Source: Planctomycetota bacterium (GTDB lineage: Bacteria; Planctomycetota; MHYJ01; JACQXL01). From it: a DNA stretch of 30,444 nucleotides. Position numbers and translations under genes: made by a program. Under the pieces are notes generated by a model. The model made no database searches and was not told the origin of the DNA. It saw nothing but the letters and a program-made list of their open reading frames with translations. Shown in pieces: positions 2,620 through 25,724 of this stretch (position 1 is the stretch's first letter; each line of letters begins with the position of its first letter). Where the stretch lies: contig JASEHY010000001.1 of assembly GCA_030018555.1 (NCBI GenBank), positions 1 through 30,444 of the forward strand, read 5' to 3'.

Positions 2620-2810
2620 CTTGGCTCTAAAGTAATCTTAAACCTATTCGCCTTTGTCTTATCTAATCCGAGAAGTTCATTCACCATCACACAATCCCAG
2701 ACATCCATCAGAAACTTATTGCGGAATTTCTCTTCGGGATGGTCGTCATCAAATATAAGAAGCCATTTTAGATGTGGCTCGTTCCAGATAATTTTGAGAT
2801 GAAGGGTCAT
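2616..2810 (-). CDS. Hypothetical protein
   Basis: 64-aa ORF with ATGA overlaps at both ends (translational coupling). Confidence 0.6.
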   Translation of the reverse strand: MTLHLKIIWNEPHLKWLLIFDDDHPEEKFRNKFLMDVWDCVMVNELLGLDKTKANRFKITLEPR

Positions 2811-4905: not shown

Positions 4906-4909
4906 AAAA

Positions 4910-6055
4910 TTATGTCCTATCCACCGTATAGTCAAAGGTTATAATAACACGAGTAGGAGTGCCTGAAACCGAGGTAGTATGCACGCCTATGTAATCTCCA
5001 CTATCTATTGTAGGGTTAGATAATGTGCCGTCATCGTTAGCATTTGTGCCAGCAGTTGAGGTAATATCGGTTGCCCCATCAACCCCTGCGCAAGTGCCGC
5101 CATTAGCATCGCATTCGTCCAAATGCCCGACCCAGTTTGTTCCGCCTACACAGAGAGCGTGGACTGCCTTAATCGTTACCGCATAAGGCATACGGATTGC
5201 CGCACCGTCTCCAGAGGCAGTGGGAGAGTTAATTATAATCGCTATAGGAGCATAATAAGGCAATACTCTTGGTGTTGCCCCGTATAATAATTGGTCATCA
5301 GTAGTATCTTGAGCTATCTCACCTGCGGCGTCTACCACTGGACTCGCACCATTAGGTATCGCAACCGAAGTAGTAAATGATGGCGATGTGCCAAATACTG
5401 CCGCACCTGTTCCCGTCTCATCTGTTAAAATGCCTGCTAATTCAGAAGAAGTATCTATAAGTCCGTTATGGGTAAGCGTAACATCAGCCACGATAGCATT
5501 GATTTCTGAATAGGTATCCATCTCATCGTCGTTATAGACTGCTATCGCACCTTCAGTCAATGCCGCCGCATTGAAAGTTCCGCTGGCCTGTAAGATTTCA
5601 GAGGCGTCTACTTTCAAGGTAACATCCGTGCCCGCAGGAGACGCTTCCCAGGCTATTCCTTCGGCATTATCTAATCTTATCGCCTCTGCGTCAGCAGGGT
5701 CGGTAGCGTCAATGGAAAGTGGAGCATTGAATAAGAAGTCTGTGCCGTCATAGTCAAGGGTTTTATCCCCGCCTACATTATTAAATGTAAGCGTTGTGCC
5801 TTGCGTGCCGTCAAAGCACGCTCCTGTAGTGCAATCGCCGACTGAGGTAACATCGCCTACGCCGCCTCCGCCTCCAGTGGTTACTGAACCCGAATAGTCG
5901 GCATTCTCGGTAAGCGTTCCATTAGTTACTTTAAGCTTCCAATATGCGCCAGAGGGTGCTCCGTCCTCTTCCTCGATTGTTAAGCGGCCGGGGATAGGTT
6001 GTGCGTAGGAAAGCGTAGAGAGAAATAGGAGGAAAAAAAGGATTAGCTTTTTCAT
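4910..6055 (-). CDS. Tail fibre/appendage-like protein with signal peptide
   Basis: Signal MKKLILFFLLFLSTLSYA; Gly/Thr/Asp-rich with ETGTGAAVFGTSPSFTT fibre-type repeats and a C-terminal beta-sandwich. Confidence 0.65.
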   Translation of the reverse strand: MKKLILFFLLFLSTLSYAQPIPGRLTIEEEDGAPSGAYWKLKVTNGTLTENADYSGSVTTGGGGGVGDVTSVGDCTTGACFDGTQGTTLTFNNVGGDKTLDYDGTDFLFNAPLSIDATDPADAEAIRLDNAEGIAWEASPAGTDVTLKVDASEILQASGTFNAAALTEGAIAVYNDDEMDTYSEINAIVADVTLTHNGLIDTSSELAGILTDETGTGAAVFGTSPSFTTSVAIPNGASPVVDAAGEIAQDTTDDQLLYGATPRVLPYYAPIAIIINSPTASGDGAAIRMPYAVTIKAVHALCVGGTNWVGHLDECDANGGTCAGVDGATDITSTAGTNANDDGTLSNPTIDSGDYIGVHTTSVSGTPTRVIITFDYTVDRT

Positions 6056-9102: not shown

Positions 9103-10266
9103 TTAAAAATACTTAACCCTATCTCCTAATAAAGCAGGGTATTTCTTTTTAAGATTAGTTACGCTGCTTCCTGAAATCCCGCCCAATTCATCAAATACAT
9201 CGTATTCAGCTCCCGCCTTACGAAGCCCCGATAAGTCAGTAGGCGCACTCCCCCCAGGTGGGGTCTTCGGGGCAGTAGTAGGTAGATCTCCCAGATAATC
9301 TGCTCCAATCTGCCCGATTGCCGACAATCCTGCTTCGGCAGGAGAAATTATCCCACCCTTAAATCCTTCTATACCCATTCTACTCCGATAGCCTTCTGAA
9401 ATTGAGGGTTGATAGATACCTGCGGCTTGCGTAGCTACGGAAGCAGACCTGCCCTTTGATGATGCGCTGGCATTCTCCATAAGCTGTAAGAAATCCGATA
9501 GTTCAGCCCTTGAACGCTCTTTTTCGGTTAATGCCCGCTCTCCCACTGTTCCCGCTTCACCTCTTGCGCCTGAAGATAATGCTTGATAAGCTTGTATAGT
9601 TTGAAAGGCGTTAGATAATGACTGCTGCCGTGCTGCCTGTCTTTCTGCTGCTGATTTTATGGCTAAATCTACTCCTGCCCGGCCTAATTGCTCAAATCTA
9701 ATTCCGCCTTCAGGAGTGCCACCGAATACGCCCCGCCTATTAGCTTCGGCATTAACCATTTGTCTGGCTAATTCTAATTGCTGTGGTAAGGTATCTTCAA
9801 AAGTCCCGCCTGGGGTTTTCGCTTCGCCAAGTATTTGGTCTGCAAACGCTATCGCCGAGGGGCCTTCTTCTCTGAATAATTCTTCGCCTGTCTTGCCTTG
9901 TCTTGCGGCTATCTTATCTAAAAGCTGCCTTGTCTGTGGGCCAACCTCACGAAGCAACTCCTCGCCCAGCAATCCCGCTCTGCGCTCAAGTTCTTTTTGT
10001 TGTTTAGCCTCTAACCCCTCAGAAATCTTTATCGGTTGTTCGCCTTCAGGCAGTCCATATAACCTCTGTTCTCTGGCTAATTCCCCAGGGGTAAGTCCGA
10101 ACTTCTCTTCTAATCTCCGCTGTTCGGCTATTGCTGTTTGCTGTTGTTCCTTAACTAAATCTTCAGCTCTTTTTGCCGCTTTCTTTTTTTGGCTGGAGGC
10201 GATTGCTGAAGCCCCTGCCGTCGCAGCCGTAGCCGCAATTGCTATTGGAATCGCTATCGGAGGCAT
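9103..10266 (-). CDS. Putative DNA ejection (internal virion) protein 1
   Basis: Ala-rich hydrophobic start (MPPIAIPIAIAATAATAGASAIAS) followed by KKKAAK and a Q/A/G-rich helical body, typical of first ejection proteins. Confidence 0.65.
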   Translation of the reverse strand: MPPIAIPIAIAATAATAGASAIASSQKKKAAKRAEDLVKEQQQTAIAEQRRLEEKFGLTPGELAREQRLYGLPEGEQPIKISEGLEAKQQKELERRAGLLGEELLREVGPQTRQLLDKIAARQGKTGEELFREEGPSAIAFADQILGEAKTPGGTFEDTLPQQLELARQMVNAEANRRGVFGGTPEGGIRFEQLGRAGVDLAIKSAAERQAARQQSLSNAFQTIQAYQALSSGARGEAGTVGERALTEKERSRAELSDFLQLMENASASSKGRSASVATQAAGIYQPSISEGYRSRMGIEGFKGGIISPAEAGLSAIGQIGADYLGDLPTTAPKTPPGGSAPTDLSGLRKAGAEYDVFDELGGISGSSVTNLKKKYPALLGDRVKYF

Positions 10267-10664
10267 AACACTCCCCTACCTTTCCATATATTTAATTTAG
10301 ACATATCAGGGCTAAGCCAGGATATTGTCTTAGGGTTTTCCTTCCTAACCACTTCCCTTAACCCCCTTAAAATTATCTTTGCTCCGCCTGCTAACAGATA
10401 TAAAAAATGTATATTCTGACCTTTTTCACTTAACATCTGTAAAGCATCCTGTGGGTTATCTACTTTCATAAAACCATACTGAAGTTTCCATAGAGTATCA
10501 TCGGTAACCCGTGCATACATTGCCGCACCTAAAAACTTATCTCCGTCTTTTACCGTGATAACTTTATCTTCGTTCTTATCTAATAAACTCAATATCTGCC
10601 AATAGGCGAATCTATTTTTTAGCCCCGGATAGTTCTCATAGATGTATTTGGAAAGCTCAATCAC
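10254..10664 (-). CDS. Acyltransferase/GNAT-like small protein preceding the ejection genes
   Basis: Position matches the GNAT-like gene of podoviruses (T7 gp13-like slot); alpha/beta pattern. The fold call is inference. Confidence 0.4.
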   Translation of the reverse strand: MIELSKYIYENYPGLKNRFAYWQILSLLDKNEDKVITVKDGDKFLGAAMYARVTDDTLWKLQYGFMKVDNPQDALQMLSEKGQNIHFLYLLAGGAKIILRGLREVVRKENPKTISWLSPDMSKLNIWKGRGVLCLR

Positions 10665-11022
10665 TCAAGGCCTCCCCTAAGTTTTCCAAATCATCATCAG
10701 TCAAATTTAGCTTTTGTTTAATGGCGTTCTTTTTATCAAGTTTTTCCTGTTTCTCCTCTTGCTTAACCTTATCAAAATTATGTGTCTTGATTATGTCTGA
10801 TATGATTTTTCTCTCCTGCGCCGTAAGTTCTCTTTCGTTTAACTTAATTTCTATCTTATCCCCAACAGTATTCATATAACCTTGCTGGTTTTTACCAGAT
10901 AAAATAATCCCAGTAAAAAGCTCTATTTCCTTTAACAATTTATCAGCATAAAATCTATCTTTAGTAAATTCTTCAGCAAGGCATATACTTGTCAATAAAA
11001 AGAATACAATTAAAAATTTCAT
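10657..11022 (-). CDS. Tail fibre assembly chaperone-like protein with signal peptide
   Basis: Directly follows the fibre gene; C-terminal KQKLNLTDDDLENL helix; signal MKFLIVFFLLTSICLA. Confidence 0.55.
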   Translation of the reverse strand: MKFLIVFFLLTSICLAEEFTKDRFYADKLLKEIELFTGIILSGKNQQGYMNTVGDKIEIKLNERELTAQERKIISDIIKTHNFDKVKQEEKQEKLDKKNAIKQKLNLTDDDLENLGEALSD

Positions 11023-11030
11023 AACTCCTC

Positions 11031-11951
11031 CTATTTAAGTTCTATAACTTGCATTGTCCTCTCTACGCAAGTTCCCGTATTAGCACTTACCTTCCATTGC
11101 ATTTTCCAGGTATGAGAACCTACCCCAGGAGTAGAAAGAAAAGAACCCGCTAAGATTTGGTTATAACTTCCGGTTGATACCCGTGAAATTCTCTCAGTAG
11201 TTTGCTGGTCTGAACCGTCCAAATCTATTATAACCTGGGTTTCTCCTCCTGCTATATTATTATAAAAATCTCCACTGTAAATAACTAAACAAGGATTTGC
11301 GCCAGTAGTCAAGGTTACGGACATACTTAGTAAATCTACATAACTCGTAGAGGTTGTGGTCGTATCCGTTGTGTCTGACGCCTGTGATGATTGATGCGCC
11401 GATGCTATTAAAGTTCCGCTGGTTGGCAAAGTAACATTGGTCGCTCCCGTAGTTGTAAGAAGTAAAGTATTCCCTGCTGTTCCAAGAGGGATTATCCCAC
11501 CATTATCCTGAAAGGTTTGCGTCCTGTCCGCAGTCGGGTCGGTAATAGACAAGGTAGTTTCAAAAGTATTATCAGTAGTTCCTTCCATAATTAAAGAATT
11601 TCCGTGGATTACTATTGATGGGGCAACGCCATCGTCGGAGAATATCCAATAATTATTCGTATCATCATAACGCAAGAATGGCTTGTTGGTATCGGCATTA
11701 TTCGCCGAAACCTGCTTATTCCCAGAGGTGGCATCTCCCACAGAAAGTGTATTTGCGGTCTGGTCTATATCGTTATGGTCGTGGGCGTTAAACTTGGTAG
11801 AAACTTCATTATTGCGGGTATTTTCATCACTTGCGGTAATTGTTGTGCCATCGGTTGCTGAAGGCGTAATACTCATTGAATTTGAGGGCGCACATAGAAC
11901 TCTATTTGCAAATACTGTTACTAAGAATAATGCCAATAATAATTTTCTCAT
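11031..11951 (-). CDS. Tail fibre protein with signal peptide
   Basis: Signal MRKLLLALFLVTVFANRVLCA, then a GTTITASDEN...NAHDH fibre-anchor-like motif, a Thr-rich shaft and a beta-sandwich tip (TTSTSYVDL...HTWKMQWKV). Confidence 0.75.
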   Translation of the reverse strand: MRKLLLALFLVTVFANRVLCAPSNSMSITPSATDGTTITASDENTRNNEVSTKFNAHDHNDIDQTANTLSVGDATSGNKQVSANNADTNKPFLRYDDTNNYWIFSDDGVAPSIVIHGNSLIMEGTTDNTFETTLSITDPTADRTQTFQDNGGIIPLGTAGNTLLLTTTGATNVTLPTSGTLIASAHQSSQASDTTDTTTTSTSYVDLLSMSVTLTTGANPCLVIYSGDFYNNIAGGETQVIIDLDGSDQQTTERISRVSTGSYNQILAGSFLSTPGVGSHTWKMQWKVSANTGTCVERTMQVIELK

Positions 11952-11961
11952 AATTATTCTC

Positions 11962-12279
11962 CTATGGAATATCTGTTAATTGACTACAACGCCAAGTAGT
12001 AGAACTATCACTATTTTCACAATGATAAACATTCCCACCTGTTTGTAATTGTAATTGGTCTCCTTTCTTACCAGAACGACTGCCATCAGGATTAGTTTCT
12101 ACTACTTCTAATCTATGAAAGTTCGTGTATAATTCCTGAAGATATAATTGTTCAGCTATCGGCTCACCCGATAGTGGAGGCGGCGCAGAAATTTTGTCGG
12201 CATAAAGCGAAAAGCAGGTCGCTAAAATAATACCAAAAAATAGTCCCTTAAAAAATCTAAACACGGTCTCCCTGTTCAA
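11962..12279 (-). CDS. Small tail-associated protein with signal peptide
   Basis: Lies between the nozzle and fibre genes; hydrophobic LFFGIILATCFSLYA leader. Confidence 0.6.
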   Translation of the reverse strand: MNRETVFRFFKGLFFGIILATCFSLYADKISAPPPLSGEPIAEQLYLQELYTNFHRLEVVETNPDGSRSGKKGDQLQLQTGGNVYHCENSDSSTTWRCSQLTDIP

Positions 12280-13822
12280 GGTAAATCTCCCACCCTTTAA
12301 CTTCTACAGGTTCATCAAGGTTAGAATTTGAAAACTTTATTTGGTAGAAGTCTCCCTCTTTATTAACCTCTACCCTTCCGATAATAAGATTTTGCCCCCC
12401 ATACGCATCTACTCCAAAAACCGCAGTTCCCCACAAAGAACCGCTCCCCGCCAATGATATGCTTTCGGTAGTTCCTGTAGTCTCAAAATCTTTACGCATC
12501 TCGGCAACAAGATTATAATTGCCTTTCTGGTTAGCGAAAACCTTGAGCAATTTCCAGTCCTTTTGTGGTGATAATTCGGGGAAATAAAACTGTTTAGTTG
12601 TATAAATTGTCTCTATCGCTGTCCCTGCGTCATTAGTTCCCGAAGGATACTTATAAACAAATCCTCCGTAATCCCCGAAAACAAGCATATCCTTGCCTGT
12701 GCCATCATCGGCAACGGCGATAACGTTAGCGTTTATTCCCACGAATTTCGTCCAAGCAAGGTGAAAGGTATCAAAAGATAAGATACGATTATGAGTTTCA
12801 TTGCTTGATGTAGAAAAGGCAAGATAATAATCTTTGTCAAAGAGTTCTCCTACAACGTATTGAAAACGGTTAAAGTTCGCTCCATCAATAGTTCCTTGTA
12901 TCTTTGTAGAGATAAGTTTTATACCGATAGCTCCGTCATAAATATAAATATCGCCTTGTGATGAAACAAAAAAGAAATCATTTCCTATCCTTGAAATACT
13001 TTTCGGAGATAATGTTCCTACATTAGAAATCATCCTCTGGAGTTGAAAAGTATCTTTATCATCTCCTGATAATCTCCAGATAGAATAATCTTTCCAGATG
13101 TAGAGGGCGTCAAACCCTGGAACAATAGCCCTGATAACAGAACCATCGTTCGTTTCAATACTAACATTTCCACTTAATCCTGTAGTCCAATTTTCTATGT
13201 TCCCGACATCGGTAAAATAAAGCGTGGAAGGATTTGTATTATTCCCTGCGGCAAAACCCATCCGCTTATGATACGCAACCAATGTAGCGTTAGGCGGAGA
13301 ACCCGAAAGTGCGACAGCATTGCCTGAACCTGTCCATTTATAAGGCGCAGTAGTATTAAGCCCATCCTCAATAATAAGCGTATCTTCGCCAATAGCAAAC
13401 GAAGAAAGATTGTTACCTGTAATTGCAAAAGAAAGACTGCCTGTAATATCGTCCCAAGTTCCGTCTGGACCGCCGCCCACCTGATAATCCATCTTGCGGA
13501 TTTTGTCATCGTCAAATACTCCTATAAGATATTTTGTTCCAGAGGTAGGTTTGTAATACTTTATTCCTGTGCAGATGACCGAAGCCCCAAGCGTCGTAGA
13601 GTTCAACTTTGCCGAACCACCTCTTGTTTTCCAATTACCAGAAGTAGTAAAAACTACATTCTGCAAATCGCTGGCTTCGTTATCCTCTATAGCTATAGGG
13701 CTAAAAGCATCATTCATCCCGCCATTGTTATTAAAAAATGATGCCTTTACCCATTTAACTTCCGCAAAGGCATTACAGGTAATCAAGAAGAAAGAAAGTA
13801 ATAATGAAAGTATTTTCTTCAT
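12257..13822 (-). CDS. Tail nozzle/stabilisation protein (P22 gp10/T7 gp12-like beta-propeller) with signal peptide
   Basis: After signal MKKILSLLLSFFLITCNAFA comes the nozzle-type N-terminus (GGMND...IEDNEASDLQNV...GNWKTRGG), propeller blades (LYFTDVGNIENW, LYIWKDYSIWRL, VGTLSPKSISRIGNDFFF) and a C-terminal closing domain. Confidence 0.8.
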   Translation of the reverse strand: MKKILSLLLSFFLITCNAFAEVKWVKASFFNNNGGMNDAFSPIAIEDNEASDLQNVVFTTSGNWKTRGGSAKLNSTTLGASVICTGIKYYKPTSGTKYLIGVFDDDKIRKMDYQVGGGPDGTWDDITGSLSFAITGNNLSSFAIGEDTLIIEDGLNTTAPYKWTGSGNAVALSGSPPNATLVAYHKRMGFAAGNNTNPSTLYFTDVGNIENWTTGLSGNVSIETNDGSVIRAIVPGFDALYIWKDYSIWRLSGDDKDTFQLQRMISNVGTLSPKSISRIGNDFFFVSSQGDIYIYDGAIGIKLISTKIQGTIDGANFNRFQYVVGELFDKDYYLAFSTSSNETHNRILSFDTFHLAWTKFVGINANVIAVADDGTGKDMLVFGDYGGFVYKYPSGTNDAGTAIETIYTTKQFYFPELSPQKDWKLLKVFANQKGNYNLVAEMRKDFETTGTTESISLAGSGSLWGTAVFGVDAYGGQNLIIGRVEVNKEGDFYQIKFSNSNLDEPVEVKGWEIYLEQGDRV

Positions 13823-14943
13823 CGGTTATAAGAAATCGGCACACCATAATCCGCAGGCAAATTGTATCTCCTGCGGTTCATCGCAATATCATCTTGAGAG
13901 CGTCTTGGAAAAGACAAGCTTCTTGATATATTTCCAATTCTCGCCCACATCTCTTGTTTTTGAGCGTTAAACATCGCCTCTTGCTTTGTGGCCTCGTCTT
14001 TATCTTTGGTCATCCACGCCCAGATAAGGCCTGCGGTAATTAAGATATAGTGGTATTTTTCTGGAAGGTCAGGAATATCTTCGTCGTTTATCAGGGGAAA
14101 AGGTATTCTTTGATAGCGGAAATAAATGTTTTCTGCGGCATCGGGTATCGGGAAAAATTGTATTATATAATTATCAAGGTGTATAGTATAAGAAGTTCCT
14201 GCCGACACGGTAACGGAGAGTTTCTCATATATAGTTATCTGCGTATTGCTATCAACGGATTTTACGGTATAAACATTGCTTCCTATGGTAATCCTGCTCC
14301 CTCTGCCTAATCCCTCCACGCCTGTCCAAACAGTGCTTGAGCCTGTCAATACAGAAAGATTAACCGTTCCCGATAATGTTCCTGTGGTATAGGTATCAAG
14401 TTTAGTCCCCGATAAAATCTCAAAATCAGGGCTTCCTTTACTTTGTGGGGTAGGTTCATAAATATCAAACGCTGTCGGCTCAATACCTACCAAAGCAATT
14501 CCATTTTCTATCTGGCGCATTACTTTATAGACATCGCAGTCTGCGGGTAGGCGGTATTCATCCTTATAGATAGAAAAGGTCTTCCCCGCTTCCGTAGTTC
14601 CCTGATATGCCGCCTCAAGGGTTACTTCAGTAGTAGATACGAACGCCGAAATACGATAATAGGCGTTTTCACTGCCCATTCGTATTTTGCGCCCTACCAT
14701 AGCGGCAGTAAAAGTCGTTCCGCTTCCCGTTATCGTTTTTGAAGCATTAGTCGCAGTTACCGTTCCTGTTTCATAAGGGGCGATAGTAGCGATAAACCCT
14801 TCGGTCATTAAATAAGGCAGGTCAGCGGCGGTGAGCTTATCAAGCCCCATTTGAATAGAGTCCTTAATCAGCGCTCGCTGTCCTGTAACATTAGAGATGG
14901 ATTCTACCCTTGTATAAATCGTCGAGAACTGTAATCTTGGCAT
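13819..14943 (-). CDS. Head-to-tail adaptor (tail tubular protein A/P22 gp4-like) with two inserted beta domains
   Basis: Conserved ending FFPIPDAAENIYFRYQR...DIPDLPEKYHYILITAGL; gene lies immediately upstream of the nozzle; no signal peptide. Confidence 0.75.
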   Translation of the reverse strand: MPRLQFSTIYTRVESISNVTGQRALIKDSIQMGLDKLTAADLPYLMTEGFIATIAPYETGTVTATNASKTITGSGTTFTAAMVGRKIRMGSENAYYRISAFVSTTEVTLEAAYQGTTEAGKTFSIYKDEYRLPADCDVYKVMRQIENGIALVGIEPTAFDIYEPTPQSKGSPDFEILSGTKLDTYTTGTLSGTVNLSVLTGSSTVWTGVEGLGRGSRITIGSNVYTVKSVDSNTQITIYEKLSVTVSAGTSYTIHLDNYIIQFFPIPDAAENIYFRYQRIPFPLINDEDIPDLPEKYHYILITAGLIWAWMTKDKDEATKQEAMFNAQKQEMWARIGNISRSLSFPRRSQDDIAMNRRRYNLPADYGVPISYNR

Positions 14944-14952
14944 AGCGTCTCT

Positions 14953-15429
14953 TTATTTTTTCTTCGGTTTCTCTTCTTTAGGTTTTTCTTCTTTTGGTTT
15001 TTCACTCAATTCTTCTAACTTCTTTGTGTATTGTTCAATAAGCAGGCTTGCCTTGTGTTCTTTTTCAGAAGCTGTTGCTATTACTTTATCCGCACTTTTT
15101 TGCATATCGGATATTGACTTTCCCGTCTCCTGAAGCTTCGCCATTTGTTCTCTAATTGCCTCAGAGTCTTTTTCTCTCTGTTCAACAAGGGCTAACTTGG
15201 CCTGCGCTTCCTTAAGCAATTTATTAACTTTTACGATTTTCTCTTGGCACTCATCATCGCAACTCTGTTTCATCTGTGCGATTTCTTTATTCGCTCTATC
15301 TTGAGCGGAGATTATCTCTTTGGCTAATGTTTCTAATTCAGCATTTAACGCTATTTTGCGGCTTTCCTTAAGCTTAATTTCCGCATCAAGGGTTGATAAG
15401 TTCTGTAAATCTACCTCAATCTTAGACAT
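14953..15429 (-). CDS. Coiled-coil protein
   Basis: Continuous heptads and a C-terminal KPKEE repeat. Confidence 0.65.
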   Translation of the reverse strand: MSKIEVDLQNLSTLDAEIKLKESRKIALNAELETLAKEIISAQDRANKEIAQMKQSCDDECQEKIVKVNKLLKEAQAKLALVEQREKDSEAIREQMAKLQETGKSISDMQKSADKVIATASEKEHKASLLIEQYTKKLEELSEKPKEEKPKEEKPKKK

Positions 15430-16048
15430 TTGCCTCCTCCTTTTTCAATCCTAAAAAGTTTTCTTTTTCAATTTCAAATTTCCGCATATCGGAGTTAAGT
15501 TCGCCAATCCTATCGTTCCACCACTTCTCCTGTTGTTTTATTCCTTTCTCTCTGGCGACAAGGGATTGTTTTTCTGCTTCTATCTTCTCAAGCATTGCTC
15601 CCGCCTCGGCAATGGTAATCTTCGCTTCATTCAACTGGTCGTTTATAGATGTTTTGTAAATCTCAAAGTTAGCCCTCTGCTTATTTAGTTCGGATATTTT
15701 ACTTTCCAGCTCCATCGTCTTTTGTTCTCTGCGCTGAACTTCCAGTTCCCTATCGTTGATTTTGCGCTCAATAAGTTCGGCGGTGTCAATTCGCTTCTCG
15801 GCTTCAATTCTTTTTATCTCAATCTTTCTCTCTTCGGCGGCAAACTTATTATAAGTTTCGTTCTCGGAAACTTTATCCGTATATTCCTTTTTTACATCTG
15901 CGCTGTGTTTCTGCGCCTCAAGGTTGCTTAAGGTAATTTGAAGTTTTGAGATTTCTTCAGTAATGTTTTCCTTAATCTTTTTCAATGCGGCAATCTCGTC
16001 CAACTCTTTATTTACCCGCTCAATGTTTATTACTTTCTTTTCTTTCAT
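15422..16048 (-). CDS. Long coiled-coil protein
   Basis: K/E/I/L-rich heptads over nearly the full length. Confidence 0.65.
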   Translation of the reverse strand: MKEKKVINIERVNKELDEIAALKKIKENITEEISKLQITLSNLEAQKHSADVKKEYTDKVSENETYNKFAAEERKIEIKRIEAEKRIDTAELIERKINDRELEVQRREQKTMELESKISELNKQRANFEIYKTSINDQLNEAKITIAEAGAMLEKIEAEKQSLVAREKGIKQQEKWWNDRIGELNSDMRKFEIEKENFLGLKKEEANV

Positions 16049-16056
16049 ATTTCTCC

Positions 16057-17190
16057 TTATAATGTTTGCGCTTCAAGCGCTGATATATATATAATCCCTA
16101 CCAATGCAGTAGGAGCTAACCACAAGGGCGAATTAGTTACGCAAATAATCAAATAAGAAAGTAAACCGCTGATATACCCGATATTAAGCATATTCTTCTT
16201 TATCAGGATTATCTTCTTAGCCAATCCGCAAAGATAACCCATAACCAAAATAAACAAAAATATCCCACCATCGTGAAGAACCTGTAAGAACTCACTCTCA
16301 GCAAATAACGCTACCGAAGATGTATGGTCTGCATATTTTTTGACAGCGAAACTATTTAATCCATGTCCAGTAAAAGGTTTTAATATCCAATTATCTAAAG
16401 TTATCCGCCATAGTTCAAACCTACCCGAAGCCCGTAGGTAAGAAGGATTAAAATAACAAAATGTAATTCCAATAAGAATAACGCCGCATATTATCAATAC
16501 CGCTAATCTTGTTTTTTTAGTCATTATTAAATATGCCAAAAGCCCGATGATAAAAGCCGCCATTGACATCGTGCTGTCAATAAAAACCAAACATAAGAAT
16601 ATCGCCGCATAGAAAATCTTATATTTCAAATCCTTAAACATCAAACATAATGGAGAAATCATCGCTACAAAATTAGCGGTATTCATACTATTACCCATAA
16701 AAGTAATCATCTTATTACCGTGAAGCCACTTTAAGTCTTTAGTGAATATCTGGTCTAATCCGAGCCTCTGCAATAAGGCATAAATGCTAAAGACAAACGC
16801 CACCCAGCATAAAACCTTTGCTATTTTTACCCACCTGTCCAGATTATCAGTATACTCTACAAGGTCTTTAATTAAGAATATAGAAAGAATAATATTGAGC
16901 GTCGGAAGATAATTCCAGATATTCCAATTTACTTTCACCCCGCTCTTTGCCAAAACCAAAGGAAGATAAAAGTGATATGCAAAAGATAACATAAGATAAA
17001 TCAATACCAAACCAATCCATTTGTTTTTAAGAGTATTCAGCCGTTGTTTATCGGTAATAAAATTCACCCCCAAAAGTATAAACCCAAAAATAGAAAATGC
17101 GGCATTTTTTGGCATCCAGAAATTATCCACAGTATTGGGAATAGTAATTACCGAACAAAGTATAAAGGTAACTATTAACGCAATCCACAT
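16057..17190 (-). CDS. O-antigen ligase/O-oligosaccharyltransferase-like (Wzy_C-type) polytopic membrane protein
   Basis: About 11-12 hydrophobic segments with family-like motifs FWMPK, ALLQRLGLD, TFMGNSMNTANF, SGRFELW...KPFTGHGLNSF and EFLQVLHDGG. Confidence 0.8.
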   Translation of the reverse strand: MWIALIVTFILCSVITIPNTVDNFWMPKNAAFSIFGFILLGVNFITDKQRLNTLKNKWIGLVLIYLMLSFAYHFYLPLVLAKSGVKVNWNIWNYLPTLNIILSIFLIKDLVEYTDNLDRWVKIAKVLCWVAFVFSIYALLQRLGLDQIFTKDLKWLHGNKMITFMGNSMNTANFVAMISPLCLMFKDLKYKIFYAAIFLCLVFIDSTMSMAAFIIGLLAYLIMTKKTRLAVLIICGVILIGITFCYFNPSYLRASGRFELWRITLDNWILKPFTGHGLNSFAVKKYADHTSSVALFAESEFLQVLHDGGIFLFILVMGYLCGLAKKIILIKKNMLNIGYISGLLSYLIICVTNSPLWLAPTALVGIIYISALEAQTL

Positions 17191-17198
17191 ATTAAATC

Positions 17199-17223
17199 GG
17201 GAGGGGACGATTAGTCCCCTCCC
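17199..17223. terminator. Intrinsic terminator-like hairpin after the capsid and decoration genes
   Basis: Perfect 10-bp stem GGGAGGGGAC/GTCCCCTCCC with a 5-nt loop. The tail is TTGTTTTGTT on plus and GATTTAAT on minus. Confidence 0.65.
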
Positions 17224-17231: not shown

Positions 17232-17741
17232 TTAATCAGCACCAGTGGGGTCAACCCAAATAAATAAATAATCATCATCTGAACCTGAACCCGCTTCAAG
17301 CGCAATTCCCAAATTAGTGCCACCACCGATTGAACCAATCGTTCCGCTTGCAGTAGTTCCTACAGCAGTTCCGCTTGATACTGCATCAGAAGAATCAGCC
17401 GCTAACGCATCAATCGGCCCTTTCGTAACAACTACTACCGGAGTTTGGTTATCTGCGGCATACTTAACGCAACCGACAACTAATATGCTGTCAGCTGTAG
17501 CTAAATCTTCCACATACGCGCCAAGTGTAGTTCCCGCGGTTACTCCCGTTCCGTTTAAATCAAGAACAACAGCTTCACCGTGGGTAAGCCTATTACCGCC
17601 ATTATTAAAAAAAACAGCGGTTTCCTGCAACTGTCTATAATTAGAACCATCGCCACTTGCAGAACCCCAGGCAAAACACACTCCGTTAAACGCCAATACT
17701 TCGGCGAATAACAGAGCGATGAGCATACATAATTTTTTCAT
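17232..17741 (-). CDS. Capsid decoration/cement-like protein with signal peptide
   Basis: Follows the MCP gene. True start is the ATG at 17741 after GGAGG. Signal MKKLCMLIALLFAEVLAFNGVCFA, then a G/A/T-rich beta-clip-like body (VVGCV...VVVVTKG...GIALEA). Confidence 0.65.
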   Translation of the reverse strand: MKKLCMLIALLFAEVLAFNGVCFAWGSASGDGSNYRQLQETAVFFNNGGNRLTHGEAVVLDLNGTGVTAGTTLGAYVEDLATADSILVVGCVKYAADNQTPVVVVTKGPIDALAADSSDAVSSGTAVGTTASGTIGSIGGGTNLGIALEAGSGSDDDYLFIWVDPTGAD

Positions 17742-17755: not shown

Positions 17756-18729
17756 TTAGCTCCAAGTATCTGCGTTTAATAATGTGCCATTACGACCAAG
17801 GTTGGTCATAACGGCATTCCCCGCCCAGAGGACATAAGTTGCCAAATCGTCCTTAGTTTGGGATTTCACAAAATCACCTATCTCGGCATCTCTTCCTTCG
17901 CGCACAAATAAGCGGAAATACTTTTTTGCGTTCAGGAAATATCCGAAATTGGCAGGACAGGCATCATCAGCGAAAATCAACGCGCCTTTGTATGAAATAT
18001 TACCAAAGCCAGCATCAATCATTGCCTGGTCGCCTGCGCCTACGCCCATCAACGGAAGATTAACCTGAAAGGTTGAAGTCAACGCCCTTTCAAAGTTATC
18101 CATTGCCGCGCCTGTGAGGACAATAGTATCAATTGTCTCGTCATACCTTGTGGCTTGGCGAAACAATGTCCTCATAATGTTCAGGCCGTTGGTGGTAAAT
18201 GCGCTTGCAACATTACCCGACTGATGTCTCCACTTGGTTAATGTCGCCCTGCTTAAATTACCTACTGTTCCAGTTGTCGTGGAAGTGGTAAGCATATTCT
18301 GTAATCCTGTAATCGCCCGCAGATTAGTCTCATCAGCGGAAGAAAAAATACCCTCCGATGAACCACCGATACTTTCCCGCATTGCGATTTCCGCAGATTG
18401 CAGAAATAACTCCACGAGGTCAATCTCATTGCCTTCAGGGGTCTTAATCATATCAAGACCGCTGACCTGCACGGGGACCGCGATTTGCTTCCACTCATAT
18501 ATACAGCTTGTTGCTGGATCGCCCCTTACAGGCGTCAATGGGTCAAGGTCAGTATAACCCTGCGCCGTCGGAAGCTCCTTTAAGATGTTAAATCTTAAGT
18601 GAGGTTTTCCTCCAGTACGGATTATAGAACCAAGAGCCTTCAAGCGGTATAAGAGCGAAGTGCGGGTTGAGGCGTTATCAAATAACACCCCTTCCGCTTC
18701 GTCTGCCACGATTGAGAATATTCTTTGAT
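17756..18729 (-). CDS. Major capsid protein (HK97 fold), exon 2
   Basis: LFDN...LLYRLK, YEWKQIAVPVQVSG, GLQN, YKGALIFADDACP..GYFLN, LWAGNAVMTN are recognisable capsid motifs. The track start (GTG at 18709) has no RBS; the frame stays open upstream to the predicted 3' splice site. Confidence 0.88.
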
Positions 18730-19544
18730 CAGTATTGTTATCGCAATATTATTTAAATATTGCTTCCAGATATTGCTATCTGGCTCAGACTATCTCTTGC
18801 CTTATTATCGGCGGCGAGGCTCGTGCCAGGATTATTGTCCGCTTGGGACTCACCGGTAGTCGTTACACCTTCAAGGATATTGCTATCCAAGTTCGGCTCG
18901 GGATTGTCCAGAGCTTTTAATAAATTACTAAAAAGTTGGAGTTTCCCCGAATTCTTCGCCTTTTTTATAAGTAAAGAGGTTCTATGCAGTTCTTGGTGAC
19001 AACCTTTACACAAAACTATCCCATTCTTAACATCATACCTAAGTTCTCTATGAGTCTTAAATGGTAATATATGGTGCGCAACAAGAACCTTGTCATCAGA
19101 AAAGCAAATCTGGCATTGGTATCTATCTCTTTCTCGCACGGATTTACGCCAAGAGCTATAATCCATCCTTGTCCATCCGTATTCTTTATCCATTCTTTTT
19201 CTGCCAGCCTTCTGAAGCCCTAAAGAAATTTCCTTCCTATGTTCTAAGCTTAAAATCGCCCCTTTTTTCTTTAAACTTATTTTTTTCTTAGTTTCTTCAG
19301 AAAGATATTTACCTTTCCAATAAGCAGGATAAGATTTGGATTTTCTTGTCATACTCATTTTTTGCTTCGTTTCTTCAGTATGCTTAATCCCCAATCTTGT
19401 TTTATATCCTTTAGATCTAAAGGTTTGAGAACCCTTCAAGATATTAAGTTTAACCCGCATATCCTGACTTGCTTTTAAACCCTTATTCCACGGTATATTT
19501 CCTACTCTAAACATATCTTCCCCTTAGCTTAGGGAACTAAATTA
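18730..19544 (-). ncRNA. Group I self-splicing intron (IA-like, 815 nt) in the major capsid gene
   Basis: P1 AGGGAAU/GUUCCCU with a U.G wobble at the 5' splice site; P element AAUUCGGGGAAAC (18953-18941); Q GACAAUCCCGAGCCGAAC (18908-18891); R GAAGGUGUAACGACUA (18872-18857); S AAGAGAUAGUCU (18798-18787); P3 GGCGAAG/CCUCGCC; P8; GCAA-capped P9; omega-G at 18730. Splicing restores a 334-aa frame. Confidence 0.9.
18753..19514 (-). CDS. Intron-encoded HNH homing endonuclease with NUMOD3-like repeats
   Basis: PWNKG start; HTEETKQKMS/LSEETKKKIS/LSLEHRKEIS repeats; CQIC...AHHI...NGIVLCKGCHQELH HNH core. Confidence 0.9.
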   Translation of the reverse strand: MFRVGNIPWNKGLKASQDMRVKLNILKGSQTFRSKGYKTRLGIKHTEETKQKMSMTRKSKSYPAYWKGKYLSEETKKKISLKKKGAILSLEHRKEISLGLQKAGRKRMDKEYGWTRMDYSSWRKSVRERDRYQCQICFSDDKVLVAHHILPFKTHRELRYDVKNGIVLCKGCHQELHRTSLLIKKAKNSGKLQLFSNLLKALDNPEPNLDSNILEGVTTTGESQADNNPGTSLAADNKARDSLSQIAISGSNI

Positions 19545-19575
19545 ATTCCCTCGTAACGCTCAAATTTCCTGCCAT
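19545..19575 (-). CDS. Major capsid protein, exon 1 (31 nt)
   Basis: RBS AAGGAG, then ATG at 19575 (MAGNLSVTRE + T). It joins exon 2 to give MAGNLSVTREYQRIFSIVADEAEGVLFDN. Confidence 0.85.
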
Positions 19576-21231: not shown

Positions 21232-21660
21232 TTACCTCCTGAATTTCAACCTGCCCCTATGTTTTTCCATTATCCGTTCTGCGCTTTCCCGTCTCTTAAT
21301 AATATCGCTTTCGGCATTTAACCTTTTCCTAAAATTTGCTTCCTGATGACACTCTTTTATGGAAGCATCCGCTAAATTATGATGTTTAAGTAAACTTTTA
21401 AACTGACCTTTTGAATGTATTGTTATCGGTTTTCCAAATAATTCCGTAGTGAAATTATACGATAAATCCTTGTCGGTATGGAATAACCCGATACCCCTGC
21501 TTTTAACTGACTTTTTGTTAAAGCATTCCTTGCAGAGAATATCGTCATTATATTTATACTGACCTTGCGTTTCTGACTTACACTCTACGCAAAGACAATC
21601 TACCCTTGTTTCACTTACCGCTACACTAAAAGTTTTCTCCTGCCAATTACATCCCCCCAC
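21232..21660 (-). CDS. Zinc-ribbon-containing protein downstream of portal
   Basis: CVEC...CKEC motif; this type of gene commonly follows portal genes in podovirus-like phages. Confidence 0.55.
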   Translation of the reverse strand: MGGCNWQEKTFSVAVSETRVDCLCVECKSETQGQYKYNDDILCKECFNKKSVKSRGIGLFHTDKDLSYNFTTELFGKPITIHSKGQFKSLLKHHNLADASIKECHQEANFRKRLNAESDIIKRRESAERIMEKHRGRLKFRR

Positions 21661-23680
21661 GATTACCCCCTACTCCAGGGGCACTCCTTACCCCTCCAAC
21701 TATGTCGGCGAACTCCGTAACCCCGCCCCGCCTTTGTTCTGGGGCAGTAGTTTGTGGGGCAATCTTGCTGTCGCCTTTCTGTGGTATTACCTGCGGATTT
21801 TTCATCTCATAATACTGTTTGGTTTTCATAATATGCTCATCCATCTGCGGAGTAATTTGTAACCCCAGAGATTGGTATGCCTGGCTATGGACCTGTAAAT
21901 GCAATAAACTATTTTCGTTGGGGCCTGGGATACAGGGAATACCCTTTAAAAGCAATTTATTTTCCTCTTGCGCCGTTTGAACTTCCTGTTCGTCATAACC
22001 CACAACCGCTCTGTCAATATCCTTAAAGTCAAACTTCTTAAGCAGCTGTGGAAGGATAATAGAGTCGTTTAATCTGTTGGGGAAGTTCGCTTTAATAATT
22101 CCCATTAAATCCATCCATTGCTTTCTTTCCACAGCTTCATCTTTTGCAGGACGGGTAGAACCTGCCTCTATCCTGAAAAGTAATTCTCTCTGCACAATCC
22201 TACGGGCTTCGTCAACATCTTCAGGCAGGGATGGCCACATTTCCTCTGTAGGCATTTCACCAATAATCTCGGCAACTCTTTCTCTTGGTATAAACTGCCA
22301 AATCATACCCGCTAAACCCTTGGCTATCATCACCGTAAAATCTTCAATAGTATCTACCTTCTCGGACTGACGAAGTAATGCGCCTGCCCTGACATTTTCG
22401 CTTTCGGTAGCGGTCTGTATGCCCTCAGAAGTTCCTAAAAGCTGGTTATACCCGCTTCTACGGATTAAGTCCTGAAGAATAATTTCCCTTAGCCTGTAAA
22501 AATCCTGCGGAAGCGCTGGCGGAGTAAAGCCCTTTACAGCGTTTTCAGTAATATCATCAAGCAGTATAAAGTCAACATCGCTTGCATTTTGTATTTTAGA
22601 GGCATCAGGTTCGCTTACCGCTCCTCTTTTACCCAAAAGCAATGTCCCTGCCCTTTTCCTGTGCCGTAACATTGCCGAGGAAATAAGGGAAATCTCTTTT
22701 AACTGCGGTATCATCGGCACAATATCCGAAAGCGGGAAGGCATTAGAATCTTCATCGGAGCGGGGTATCTCATTAAAGATTAAGGGATATATTGGGAATC
22801 CGTCTATAAAATAATCCCAATCTCCGTCATATAGAGAATCTTCGGTAAAGTTTTTGGCGAGGGTAATTCTTTTATGCGTAGTCCTGTCAAAGATATGGTA
22901 AAGGGTGATTTTTACAAGTTCTTCGTCCTGACCTTCATAGTTTCCACCTACACTCGGCAAAGCCTTCATATTGTAGGCACTAACAGGGCTAATCTTCGCT
23001 GAATTGGAAATCCTTAGCCCGCGGAGTCTATTTTTTACGCTCTTAAAAGACGGATTGGCCAAAATCTTATCAAGCGAAATGACTTGCTTCTTAATCAGAT
23101 AGGGACACTCCCTTATATCGTGATACCCGTCGGGAAAAAGCAAATCCCAGGGCGATAAATGACTTAAAAACACATCATCTTCTTTTATCGTTTCATCAAC
23201 TATACCCTGTTCCTCTTCGGTCTTTGTAACATTGCCTACATCTTTTAATTCAGGAAATTCCGCTTCTATTGTTTTTATCGCCTTTGACTTTTCGGTAAAG
23301 AGGAAATACCCTATCTCTATAAATCCTGGAGGCTGTAAGATACCGTCAATGATTGACTGTTTAATCTTCTTCTTGGCTTGCTTTTCATACCAGTAATGGT
23401 TTATTGCTAATTCCATTGTTTCAGCAAATTGGCCAAGGCGGGCGTTTTTTGTCCTGCAAAAGATATGCGGGTTACGGGCATAGATAGCGGAAACTAACAC
23501 CTGCATATATTCATAGACAAAATTAACTTCGCTGATTTCGGTATCACTTCGCACGGGAGAGCCGAAGAATGTTCCTGTGTATAATTTCATTATCTGCTTG
23601 CGCTCGTTGGTCTTGGTCGCCTGCAAATCTTCACAGCGCTGTATCCTGGCAAACCACAGTTTAATATCTTCAGGTTTCAT
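21647..23680 (-). CDS. Portal protein
   Basis: About 677 aa, between terL and scaffold. VNFV...LVSAIYARNP, QTATE...A..RQSEK, FRIEAGST and a Q/P-rich tail match P22-like portals. Likely start at 23680 (ATGA overlap). Confidence 0.88.
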   Translation of the reverse strand: MKPEDIKLWFARIQRCEDLQATKTNERKQIMKLYTGTFFGSPVRSDTEISEVNFVYEYMQVLVSAIYARNPHIFCRTKNARLGQFAETMELAINHYWYEKQAKKKIKQSIIDGILQPPGFIEIGYFLFTEKSKAIKTIEAEFPELKDVGNVTKTEEEQGIVDETIKEDDVFLSHLSPWDLLFPDGYHDIRECPYLIKKQVISLDKILANPSFKSVKNRLRGLRISNSAKISPVSAYNMKALPSVGGNYEGQDEELVKITLYHIFDRTTHKRITLAKNFTEDSLYDGDWDYFIDGFPIYPLIFNEIPRSDEDSNAFPLSDIVPMIPQLKEISLISSAMLRHRKRAGTLLLGKRGAVSEPDASKIQNASDVDFILLDDITENAVKGFTPPALPQDFYRLREIILQDLIRRSGYNQLLGTSEGIQTATESENVRAGALLRQSEKVDTIEDFTVMIAKGLAGMIWQFIPRERVAEIIGEMPTEEMWPSLPEDVDEARRIVQRELLFRIEAGSTRPAKDEAVERKQWMDLMGIIKANFPNRLNDSIILPQLLKKFDFKDIDRAVVGYDEQEVQTAQEENKLLLKGIPCIPGPNENSLLHLQVHSQAYQSLGLQITPQMDEHIMKTKQYYEMKNPQVIPQKGDSKIAPQTTAPEQRRGGVTEFADIVGGVRSAPGVGGNRGGM

Positions 23681-24054
23681 TTTCTTTCCCAATCTTCTAT
23701 GGTAATGTTATAAGGCACGCCGAGCCAATTACCTTCCTTATCTTTAGTAAGCAGGCTTACCGCCCAGATATGAAATACGGGCGGGTGCGCTTTTTGTTCC
23801 CACGCCCAGCTCTCGTATTGGTTCATCGGGCAATTATCTATCGGGCATACAAACGCATCTTCATTTTTAGGTTGCGGCACATCTTCGCTTGCGGGTTTAA
23901 AATCTTCGGCTTTTAATTCATCGCCAACCTTAATCTCGTCTTTCTGGTAATTATATAAATGCCTTTTGCAATGTGGGCAGTAAATAGGGATTTCAGCAAA
24001 TACTAATACAGCAGAAAATAGTAATAAAATAGTAGTTAGAAATAGTTTCTTCAT
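23677..24054 (-). CDS. Exported Cys-containing protein between terL and portal
   Basis: Signal MKKLFLTTILLLFSAVLVFA; CPHC and CPIDNC motifs. Confidence 0.65.
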   Translation of the reverse strand: MKKLFLTTILLLFSAVLVFAEIPIYCPHCKRHLYNYQKDEIKVGDELKAEDFKPASEDVPQPKNEDAFVCPIDNCPMNQYESWAWEQKAHPPVFHIWAVSLLTKDKEGNWLGVPYNITIEDWERK

Positions 24055-25724
24055 CCTCTCCCCGCAAATACAGCCCAGGGATTAGCTCTTGAGGCCGCCA
24101 ATCGCTCATCCCTTAATTTTGAATATTCACCGAAAGTCATCTCATCTCTGCTTTCAACAATCTTTACCTCATCAGGGGCAACCGTGCTTATTCTGTTTAT
24201 AAAAGTCATAGTATCCAGAAGGTCGTCGTGTTCACACAAAGGAAACTGTAACATCTCAAATTCCATTTCAGTCGTAAGGTCATACTTTCTGCTATCTGTA
24301 AAACTCATTCGTTCAATTACACCCTTTTGCGGCCAGAACCAGTTATGATTAGCATAATCAGGAATTATACTCCGTATCCTGTCCTCTTTGGAAACCATAG
24401 ATGAGCTAATCTCCTCTATGGTAAAAAACATCCTTTCTTTGCGCCTTGTTTCCTCCAGATAAAAGCAGTCCGTCTCTTGAAATCCCACCGCTTCCCATCC
24501 GCAGGATTTGATATTCCATTTCTTTGCCAGCGCAATCGCTAAATCAACCCTCTGTTTGGGGTCAAGTTTATCTCTTAATCCATCGGCGATAAACTTCTTT
24601 ATTCTATTATCGGATTTTACCAAGCCGATAATCACCATTACTGTCCAGTCGCTTCTTTTTTTCTTGCGGCTTGCGGGATCAACCAGAAGATAATAATTAC
24701 ATTCTCTTGGTAAGGCGGTGTAATACTGTATCATTTCTTTTTTAAACTGCATTCTTGCTGGGTCTTCAGGTTTCAAAAGATGCTGGCAATTATATACCCA
24801 GGGGGCTAATCCTGATTTTATAATAGCGATGTCGCTTCGTATAAATCTCTCGGTATGCGTCGGATTACCTAAACCGTCTTCAAGGGGTATTTCTATCAGT
24901 TTTATAGCAGGATCGTCTTTTTTCACCGAATATAAGTCGTTAAAATGATACCTTGTCCCGCTATAATCCTGAAGTTTATATTTCGGATTTGAAAAATGCC
25001 CAGCATTAAACCTGTCATCATAATCCCTTGTCTTCCTTAGCTGTTCTTTGGTAGAAACGCTATCCTGGTGTTCCATATCGTCCTTCTTTGATAGGTCCCA
25101 GTGCCGTCCGGTGATTTCCGTGCCTACGCCTATGGCCTCTATACTGTCTTCCGAGCGGCTGAAATCAGTTTTATTGGCTAATGAGAACCCGCCCAGATTA
25201 CCCCATTCCTTAGACTTGGGAATACATTCGGGGAAAAGAGTTTTAATCGGGGTATTCAGGAAGTAGCTTTTAACGACTTGCAGATTATCCGATGAGTTAG
25301 TCTGTATGTTATGCACCAGCACCATACGGATATTGGGGAAATTCAGCAGGAGTTGCAGGGAGTGAACCTTGATAACTATGGTCGTTTTATAAAATCCTCT
25401 ATGACAAAGATAAAGCCGTTGTATTCGTTCATCGAATTCCGTCTCCTCTGGTGTAAGCATAAACTCCGAAGGAGGATGAAGCCCAAGCCTTACTACCTGC
25501 CAATTCATAAGGCTTACTTCATCGCAGAAATCTTTAAACACACTCGGAAGCCGCTCAATCTCTTTATTTCCTGTAAGGCAACAAAGGTAATAAAGGTCAT
25601 TCCTGCAAAGCCAGCGGCGTTTATCCCGAAGAAGTATCCCTGCCACAGTTTCGGATTTTGCCATACGGATAGCTTCATCCCACTGTTGACATTTAGCTTC
25701 TATTGATTGACGGAGTTTATTCAT
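24051..25724 (-). CDS. terL: Terminase large subunit
   Basis: ATPase motif HRGFYKTT, GRHWD...DD, GTRYH..DLY, and RNase H-like nuclease YLLVDPA...SDWT, EAVGFQ, HDDLLD. Confidence 0.92.
   Translation of the reverse strand: MNKLRQSIEAKCQQWDEAIRMAKSETVAGILLRDKRRWLCRNDLYYLCCLTGNKEIERLPSVFKDFCDEVSLMNWQVVRLGLHPPSEFMLTPEETEFDERIQRLYLCHRGFYKTTIVIKVHSLQLLLNFPNIRMVLVHNIQTNSSDNLQVVKSYFLNTPIKTLFPECIPKSKEWGNLGGFSLANKTDFSRSEDSIEAIGVGTEITGRHWDLSKKDDMEHQDSVSTKEQLRKTRDYDDRFNAGHFSNPKYKLQDYSGTRYHFNDLYSVKKDDPAIKLIEIPLEDGLGNPTHTERFIRSDIAIIKSGLAPWVYNCQHLLKPEDPARMQFKKEMIQYYTALPRECNYYLLVDPASRKKKRSDWTVMVIIGLVKSDNRIKKFIADGLRDKLDPKQRVDLAIALAKKWNIKSCGWEAVGFQETDCFYLEETRRKERMFFTIEEISSSMVSKEDRIRSIIPDYANHNWFWPQKGVIERMSFTDSRKYDLTTEMEFEMLQFPLCEHDDLLDTMTFINRISTVAPDEVKIVESRDEMTFGEYSKLRDERLAASRANPWAVFAGRG

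Follow-up and report, generated by a model that had tools for sequence, protein, structure and literature searches.

A Wzy_C-family membrane protein gene is a fixed member of the head-tail module in an uncultivated podovirus clade and co-occurs with predicted signal peptides on virion proteins

Results

The window analyzed here is one whole contig (30,444 bp) of a metagenome-assembled genome (MAG), which comprises 313 contigs and 1.66 Mb. Almost all long open reading frames (ORFs) of the window lie on the minus strand and form a podovirus-type late module. Within this module, an ORF at 16057-17190 (minus strand, ATG start) encodes a polytopic protein of 377 amino acids (aa), which we call P0001. 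P0001 is a new, phage-restricted variant of the known WaaL/PglL superfamily in a context for which we found no description in the literature searched, and its gene is a fixed core gene of the head-tail module in a large uncultivated podovirus clade. As far as sequences can tell, this Wzy_C-like gene co-occurs across loci with N-terminal signal peptides on virion-type proteins. As the best working model, we tentatively propose that P0001 and its relatives serve a periplasmic, O-glycosylation-type maturation of exported virion proteins.

P0001 has the predicted fold of WaaL and PglL

P0001 passes the cut-off of the Pfam family PF04932 (Wzy_C) over residues 195-316 (E 7.5e-11; 42.5 bits versus a cut-off of 31.7), and PF04932 is present in most P0001 homologs. 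An AF2 model of P0001, computed from a 24-sequence alignment, contained 12 transmembrane (TM) helices (pLDDT 85.9, pTM 0.87). When this model was compared with the PDB by Foldseek, the best and only significant match was WaaL (7tpg_B; E 1.7e-5, TM-score 0.60/0.57, probability 1.00); RodA was a distant second. Among the reviewed AlphaFold models (Swiss-Prot), the top two matches were the O-oligosaccharyltransferases (O-OTases) PglS and PglL from Acinetobacter baylyi, with a TM-score by query of 0.72, and the lower matches were TuaE (0.65), WaaL (0.59-0.62) and Wzy (0.59). In the model, the periplasmic loop lies between TM9 and TM10. The positive-inside rule agrees with this topology: the K/R-rich loops 2, 6, 8 and 10 are placed on the cytoplasmic side and the Wzy_C loop on the opposite side. 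P0001 is thus modeled as an inner-membrane protein whose N- and C-termini are cytoplasmic and whose Wzy_C loop is periplasmic.

Sequence searches of the PDB with P0001 and with the family profile returned nothing at E up to 10, and P0001 had no match in NCBIfam (E up to 1) or in PHROGs (E up to 0.01). The alignment of the family profile with Escherichia coli WaaL by hhalign was not significant (probability 0.09). In the literature that we searched, we found no account of a Wzy_C gene among the structural genes of a phage, or of Sec-exported tail proteins together with such a gene. An earlier note on this DNA had described a Wzy_C-type polytopic protein directly after the decoration gene, and the Pfam score, the 12-TM model and the gene order agree with that description.

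The gene is found on phage-like contigs and keeps one position

A word-indexed search detected 35 homologs besides P0001 (36-71% identity), all of which are metagenomic. When 1.84 billion cluster representatives were scanned exhaustively with HMMER, 336 clusters (50% identity) were obtained at E<=1e-3; the best 150 of these 336 clusters are mostly 340-420 aa in length, fragments aside. We read the genomic contexts of members with 55, 45, 41, 39, 29, 29, 27, 27 (P0096) and 24% identity, and those of IMG/VR loci found through the gene (5 loci) or through the nozzle gene. In every context read, the family member was on a phage-like contig. As far as the contigs reach, 13 loci and 3 gene tables, with members as distant as 24% identity, have one and the same gene order. 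The shared order is scaffold, major capsid protein (MCP; ~311-333 aa), decoration-like protein (~157-208 aa), Wzy_C-like protein (~363-400 aa), coiled-coil protein (~200-290 aa), second coiled-coil protein, adaptor (~372 aa) and nozzle (~521 aa). The identity of the Wzy_C-like gene to that of the window is 27-55%, whereas that of the MCP, adaptor and nozzle is 54-82%; the Wzy_C-like gene evolves faster than these three, and about as fast as the coiled-coil genes. No homolog was found in 50,697 GenBank phage records.

The MAG possesses three Wzy_C proteins of its own (contigs C287, C285 and C21), which are long (528-953 aa) and unrelated to P0001 beyond the domain. Because the contig was binned into this MAG, we considered whether the P0001 gene is a recently captured host WaaL gene, either as a moron or as a binning artefact. 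We rejected this explanation as very improbable. The best match of P0001 by BLASTP among all MAG ORFs had an E value of only 0.79, the relatives with a context read all belong to this phage module, no relative and thus no prophage copy turned up when 185,579 species genomes were scanned by pattern, and the GC content of the gene resembles that of the phage. Clustering with host WaaL, which the earlier note had named as a check, was not observed.

Virion-type proteins carry predicted signal peptides

Nine ORFs of the window encode proteins with a leader composed of a basic n-region, a hydrophobic h-region and an A-x-A-like site. These are the decoration-like protein (17232-17741, minus strand; Sec-type, MKKLCMLIALLFAEVLAFNGVCFA followed by WG at the predicted cleavage site), the nozzle/tail-hub protein (12257-13822, minus strand; Sec-type, …ITCNAFA followed by EVKW), a 105-aa protein (11962-12279, minus strand), a fibre-like protein (11031-11951, minus strand; Sec-type), the small protein encoded after TerL, and the products of ORFs 10657-11022, 4910-6055, 4471-4935 and 2807-4474. 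We compared the leaders with those of orthologs in L001, L003, L004, L012, L016, L018, L020 and L021. For the decoration-like, nozzle, 105-aa, fibre and post-TerL proteins, the leader is kept in presence, not in sequence. ORF 4910-6055 has one ortholog (L001), which also bears a leader, and ORFs 10657-11022, 4471-4935 and 2807-4474 have no ortholog in the compared loci. No leader was ever seen on TerL, portal, MCP, scaffold, adaptor or coiled-coil proteins.

The decoration-like gene is the upstream neighbor of the Wzy_C-like gene in every locus, and every decoration-like ortholog with an intact N-terminus carries a signal peptide; those of the very distant loci L019 and L127 are also leader-bearing. 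The model of the decoration-like protein (pLDDT 61.8) gave BFVD matches to N-domains of fibre and decoration proteins with TM-scores below 0.5, which are suggestive only, and its match to the Pfam family XM1_gp53 is weak and below the cut-off.

For the nozzle, we scanned IMG/VR with the nozzle sequence and obtained 22 loci. All seven loci that reach the nozzle and have the Wzy_C-like gene (the window, L001, L003, L004, L018, L020 and L021) encode a nozzle with a leader. In contrast, 17 distant, HMO-2011-like nozzle homologs have no leader and start at the conserved GGLN…AI(A/E)DNE core. A Wzy_C-family gene was seen in none of these 17 distant loci, only six of which reach at least 3.7 kb upstream of the nozzle; in L026, L033 and L039, for which we went through every gene, the interval from capsid to adaptor is free of polytopic genes. 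The cultured relatives, Puniceispirillum phage HMO-2011 and the Roseobacter CRP phages, align with the nozzle only from residue 19-30 onward. These marine podoviruses share distant nozzle/hub homologs (23-27% identity) and a similar capsid-adaptor-nozzle order with the window; unlike the window, they have neither a nozzle signal peptide nor a polytopic gene between capsid and adaptor. Thus, the co-occurrence with exported structural genes, the other check that the earlier note had proposed, holds at the level of prediction: the leader accompanies the gene in seven of seven loci, and the HMO-2011-like sister group has neither.

Two further observations concern the leader-bearing proteins. The predicted mature N-termini are strikingly conserved in the fibre, AP(S/T)N(S/T)MSI(T/S)P, and in the 105-aa protein, I(S/P)(A/S/T)PPPL, and both are rich in Ser, Pro and Ala; these segments may serve in docking or be sites of glycosylation. 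In L004, the post-TerL ortholog contains a lipobox-like LLSGC.

The P0001 subclade has lost the catalytic histidine, and its pocket is conserved

Functionally important residues common to WaaL and PglL are R215, R288 and H338 in E. coli WaaL, which correspond to R224, R298 and H349 in PglL (PMC3643930). The His is the proposed catalytic base, PglS H324A serves as an inactive control, and the Arg residues are assigned to pyrophosphate handling (PMC12800693). Because the hhalign comparison with E. coli WaaL was not significant, we assigned residue equivalences from a MAFFT alignment of 162 sequences (E. coli K-12 WaaL and 161 family members), in which intermediate members bridge the distance.

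In P0001, Glu298 (16297-16299) occupies the position of E. coli WaaL H338, PglL H349 and PglS H324. The alignment around this position is gap-free and unambiguous: P0001 reads A-E-S-E-F-L-Q-…-G-G, His-bearing members read A-H-N-E-F-I-Q-…-G-G, and WaaL reads L-H-N-E-I-I-E. The His is kept in every aligned member outside two adjacent His-less clades of the tree (21 and 8 rows; 29 of 87), and P0001 is in the larger one. The loss in both clades is compatible with a single event; the branch that unites them is weak. Within the His-less clades the position varies among E, T, A, L, Q, K, G, M and D, with Glu the commonest in the clade of P0001.

The other positions of the pocket were examined in the same alignment. 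Arg257 (16420-16422) corresponds to E. coli WaaL R288 and PglL R298; it is 100% kept in the near clade and replaced by Lys in a few members. Thr207 aligns with E. coli R215 and PglL R224, and none of the 161 aligned members has Arg here, where the alignment (at a TM edge) is less certain than at the His. P272-F-T-G275-H-G277 matches the spacing of the P313/G316/G318 motif of PglL, and both Gly residues are invariant family-wide; G316 and G318 have been called PglL-specific (PMC3643930). Within the His-less clade, conservation is 94-100% at R257, W261, G275, G277, N299, H306, G308 and G309. Judged by this conservation, the pocket of P0001 is not decaying despite the loss of the His.

The lowest-entropy segments are in cytoplasmic loops

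The lowest-entropy segments in every subgroup are loop 4 (residues 107-125, …LVEYTDxLxRW), TM6 and loop 6 (SPLCLMFKDLRYK). The corresponding motifs in P0001 are LVEYTDNLDRW (residues 109-119) and SPLCLMFKDLKYK (residues 179-191). Both the order of helices in the model and the positive-inside rule place loops 4 and 6 on the cytoplasmic side. E. coli WaaL does not possess similar motifs in these loops. Such conservation suggests that the family has a function or partner of its own at the cytoplasmic face. A predicted complex of P0001 with the downstream coiled-coil protein scored 0.00, which is evidence in neither direction.

A conserved hairpin precedes the Wzy_C-like gene

Between the stop codon of the decoration-like gene and the ATG of the Wzy_C-like gene is a GC-rich hairpin (17199-17223, minus strand; 10 bp, of which 8 are GC; -22.7 kcal/mol, z -4.7), which has the look of a terminator or attenuator and is followed by a short A/U-rich stretch and then the P0001 ATG. 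There is no Shine-Dalgarno (SD) sequence before this ATG: the sole GGAGG-like sequence is locked in the 5' arm of the hairpin. Of the 12 related loci with DNA across this gap, 11 have a hairpin there, and the sequences differ. All nine loci that we folded have one (-19 to -27 kcal/mol), some with good U-tracts. The hairpin is also present in L125 and L127; L019 has a 2-nt gap instead. On the downstream side, coiled-coil gene 1 (15422-16048, minus strand; 208 aa, without signal peptide), which has its own AAGGAG SD sequence, starts 8 nt after the Wzy_C stop codon, and it overlaps the Wzy_C-like gene in L004, L017, L018, L125 and L127.

No promoter-like excess was found before the Wzy_C-like gene. 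This result agrees with the earlier claim that the gene is not a moron with its own promoter; however, the operon is not seamless, since the hairpin stands before the ATG. In this sequence-based picture, the gene is part of the late transcription unit and is preceded by a conserved attenuator-like element, and its expression is probably attenuated relative to the MCP and decoration genes. Because of the hairpin and the start without SD sequence, a low, enzyme-like abundance of P0001 is suggested.

Other features of the window

The module begins with TerL (24051-25724; phrog_38, 6e-52), the small leader-bearing protein, the portal (21647-23692; P22_portal) and a scaffold-like protein. An HNH/NUMOD3 endonuclease ORF (18753-19514) and the MCP gene (17756-18709, 3' exon, without signal peptide; phrog_9953, 3.9e-28) follow, and then the decoration-like and Wzy_C-like genes. 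Downstream of these are the two coiled-coil genes (the second at 14953-15429; 158 aa, without signal peptide), the SU10-type adaptor gene (13819-14943, without signal peptide; PF24175, 3e-13), and the nozzle/hub, 105-aa protein and fibre genes. All of the coordinates in this paragraph refer to the minus strand.

The MCP ORF starts with GTG at 18709 and does not include the first ~17 residues (MAGNLS.TREY.RIFS…) that are found in all orthologs. An Rfam search of 1.1 kb matched Intron_gpI at 18766-19024 with 36.2 bits, which is below the gathering score of 50 (E 2.3e-7); at the gathering threshold, Rfam gave no match anywhere in the window. The region 18730-19575 is consistent with a group I intron that contains a homing endonuclease inside the capsid gene. 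A second HNH endonuclease fragment (HNH_3) is at the contig end (1-429), and an N6/N4 DNA methylase is encoded at 29497-30264 (PF01555, 3e-48).

ORF 9103-10266 encodes a 387-aa protein with an Ala-rich hydrophobic N-terminus, in which nothing resembles a cleavage site, and a Pro/Thr/Ser-rich C-terminal stretch. This protein is kept in L001, L003, L004, L020 and L021 and is probably an internal/ejection protein. A small leaderless ORF (10254-10664) between the fibre and internal-protein genes has no Pfam match, and its only BLAST ortholog is in L004; ORFs at the same position in L001 (16212-16685) and L003 (17285-17752) match GNAT acetyltransferase families in precomputed Pfam annotation. Because the contig has no direct terminal repeat and is shorter than the related contigs of 40.8 kb, the phage genome on it is incomplete.

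Discussion

Periplasmic maturation of exported virion proteins as a working model

Periplasmic maturation of exported virion proteins, which we favor tentatively, takes up the observed fold, family, synteny, residue states and co-occurrence with signal peptides. We infer the following course, which includes the export as such, the donor and acceptor, and any catalysis. The decoration-like, nozzle and fibre proteins would be made with Sec signal peptides and pass to the periplasm, and the capsid, portal, terminase, adaptor and coiled-coil proteins would stay in the cytoplasm. Across the family as a whole, the protein would be a PglL-type O-OTase that takes a glycan linked to undecaprenyl-PP from the host and transfers it en bloc to Ser/Thr residues of the exported proteins, with the product of the adjacent decoration-like gene as the prime acceptor candidate. 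Expression of the enzyme would be kept low by the conserved hairpin and the start without SD sequence. Heads made in the cytoplasm would then meet the modified parts at lysis. In the subclade of P0001, the carboxylate of Glu298 may be used together with a pocket of Arg257, P-x-x-G-x-G and Glu300, or this pocket may only bind substrate.

O-glycosylation of the exported proteins had been suggested in the earlier note. The ranking of O-OTases in the fold comparison, the P-x-x-G-x-G motif and the exported neighbor speak for this suggestion, and it survived both of the checks that were run. Several findings weigh against it. Glu298 replaces the His, and because the residue drifts after the loss of the His, there is no sign of selection for a substitute base; this drift argues against a selected replacement. 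The family as a whole has no equivalent of R215, Thr207 being the residue of P0001 at this position. No H-x3-E-x-P motif corresponding to the PglL_B residues H400/E404/P406 was recognized in P0001, and the C-terminal periplasmic domain (Wzy_C_2) of PglL and PglS is absent: P0001 ends 19 residues past the last periplasmic loop (NSPLWL) and has 377 aa versus 548-568. The strongest conservation is in cytoplasmic loops 4 and 6, not in the periplasmic loop. Neither glycan-synthesis nor flippase genes were found in the window. Export of the structural proteins is a sequence prediction. The co-occurrence of gene and leaders compares one clade with both and one with neither, and may reflect one or two evolutionary events. 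Finally, the link between phage and host rests on binning.

The complete chain seems rather unlikely to hold in every part, namely that the clade exports its tail hub, fibres and decoration protein via Sec and that a virus-encoded PglL-like enzyme coats them with glycan in the periplasm before they are joined at lysis. We have the same reserve about its corollary that the enzyme of the window subclade switched its catalytic residue or became a non-catalytic assembly factor.

Two other roles must be weighed against periplasmic maturation. P0001 may be a non-catalytic, repurposed WaaL fold, a pseudoenzyme that acts as a membrane platform or receptor in morphogenesis; we regard this as a serious rival, though as somewhat less likely. 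Such a platform might hold exported tail and decoration parts on the periplasmic side, or might dock a cytoplasmic partner, for example the translationally coupled coiled-coil proteins or filled heads, via its conserved cytoplasmic loops, so that heads and exported parts meet at lysis. Its main support comes from the cytoplasmic loops, since loop 4, TM6 and loop 6 have the lowest entropy and their motifs are missing from E. coli WaaL. Moreover, the His is lost and its replacement varies, yet the gene is full-length and conserved in these 29 of 87 tree rows, and the overlap or near-abutment with the leaderless coiled-coil gene downstream is conserved. However, the majority of the family, outside the two His-less clades, keeps an invariant His-Asn-Glu/Asp, which is sensible only for catalysis or substrate binding, and the residues of the periplasmic motifs are near-invariant even in the His-less clade. 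The low abundance implied by the hairpin and the start without SD sequence is also enzyme-like, and no partner was identified.

Alternatively, P0001 may modify the host envelope late in infection by transfer of a lipid-linked glycan onto the LPS core or another envelope acceptor. Its effect would be masking of receptors (superinfection exclusion, or prevention of re-adsorption of progeny to debris) or a disturbance of envelope synthesis that aids lysis. The fold is that of WaaL and Wzy, the MAG is of a diderm with LPS genes, and phage-encoded O-antigen modifiers are well known, for example the seroconversion modules of D3 and P22-like phages. Nevertheless, we consider this role improbable. Seroconversion and exclusion genes are usually variable accessories near attachment or lysogeny modules, whereas the Wzy_C-like gene is fixed at one head-tail position across a family diverged to 24% identity and is always beside an exported virion-type protein. 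In addition, no integrase was seen in the window, and P0001 has lost the His. The remainder of the probability belongs to another or unknown role.

Comparison with known systems

P0001 shares the Wzy_C core, the Arg equivalent to R298 and P-x-x-G-x-G with PglL and PglS (Neisseria meningitidis PglL; A. baylyi Q6FFS6 and Q6F7F9). The pglL genes typically adjoin, in the same orientation, the gene for an exported target (21 of 31; PMC3643930). Likewise, the P0001 gene directly adjoins, and is co-oriented with, the gene for an exported candidate acceptor. Unlike PglL and PglS (~550 aa), P0001 lacks the C-terminal domain, has Glu298 for His and has no equivalent of R224/R215; moreover, it is phage-encoded, and its candidate acceptors are virion proteins, not pilins.

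With WaaL (Cupriavidus metallidurans, 7TPG; E. coli K-12, b3622), P0001 shares 12 TM helices, the periplasmic loop between TM9 and TM10 and the R288 equivalent. In contrast to WaaL, it has no equivalents of H338 and R215, its periplasmic loop is shorter (~52 aa), and the conserved family motifs are cytoplasmic. In all loci, the gene is between the decoration-like and the coiled-coil/adaptor genes, and not in an LPS core/O-antigen locus. The Wzy or O-antigen modification genes of phage seroconversion, such as those of Pseudomonas phage D3, encode polytopic proteins of the same superfamily and are accessory genes of lysogenic conversion. Unlike these, the P0001 gene is a core late gene without a PHROG match.

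Host and biological meaning

Because the MAG holds BamA, a fragment of LpxC and its own Wzy_C proteins, it looks like that of a diderm with lipid-linked glycans, from a deep and otherwise unplaced PVC-like lineage with about 2 Mb of DNA. Its RpoB fragment (contig C260) is at most 61% identical to the named genomes returned, and the best matches are Planctomycetota MAGs. The GC content of the contig is 0.403, versus 0.430 for the rest of the bin, and the contig had no (spacer-like) match to the remainder of the MAG by blastn or short-blastn.

Tailed phages are generally considered to build their virions entirely in the cytoplasm, and the glycosylation of phage virions that is known, in mycobacteriophages, depends on cytoplasmic glycosyltransferases. 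A gene for a WaaL/PglL-fold protein whose position is conserved as well as those of the adaptor and nozzle genes, and which is tied to leaders on virion-type proteins, suggests that a step of morphogenesis takes place at the inner membrane or beyond it. With acceptor candidates and natural variants with and without the His in hand, either outcome is testable with cloned genes. If glycosylation is not the function, the His-less clade would be a natural case in which a GT-C-type enzyme has become a structural or assembly factor. If Sec export and a PglL-like activity hold, bacterial viruses would have their first system for en-bloc glycosylation of proteins, and Caudoviricetes their first case of virion maturation outside the cytoplasm. 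Glycosylation would then provide compact O-OTases (~375 aa) with new acceptor specificities for bioconjugate work and, for the phages themselves, a route to cloak their virions in host glycan.

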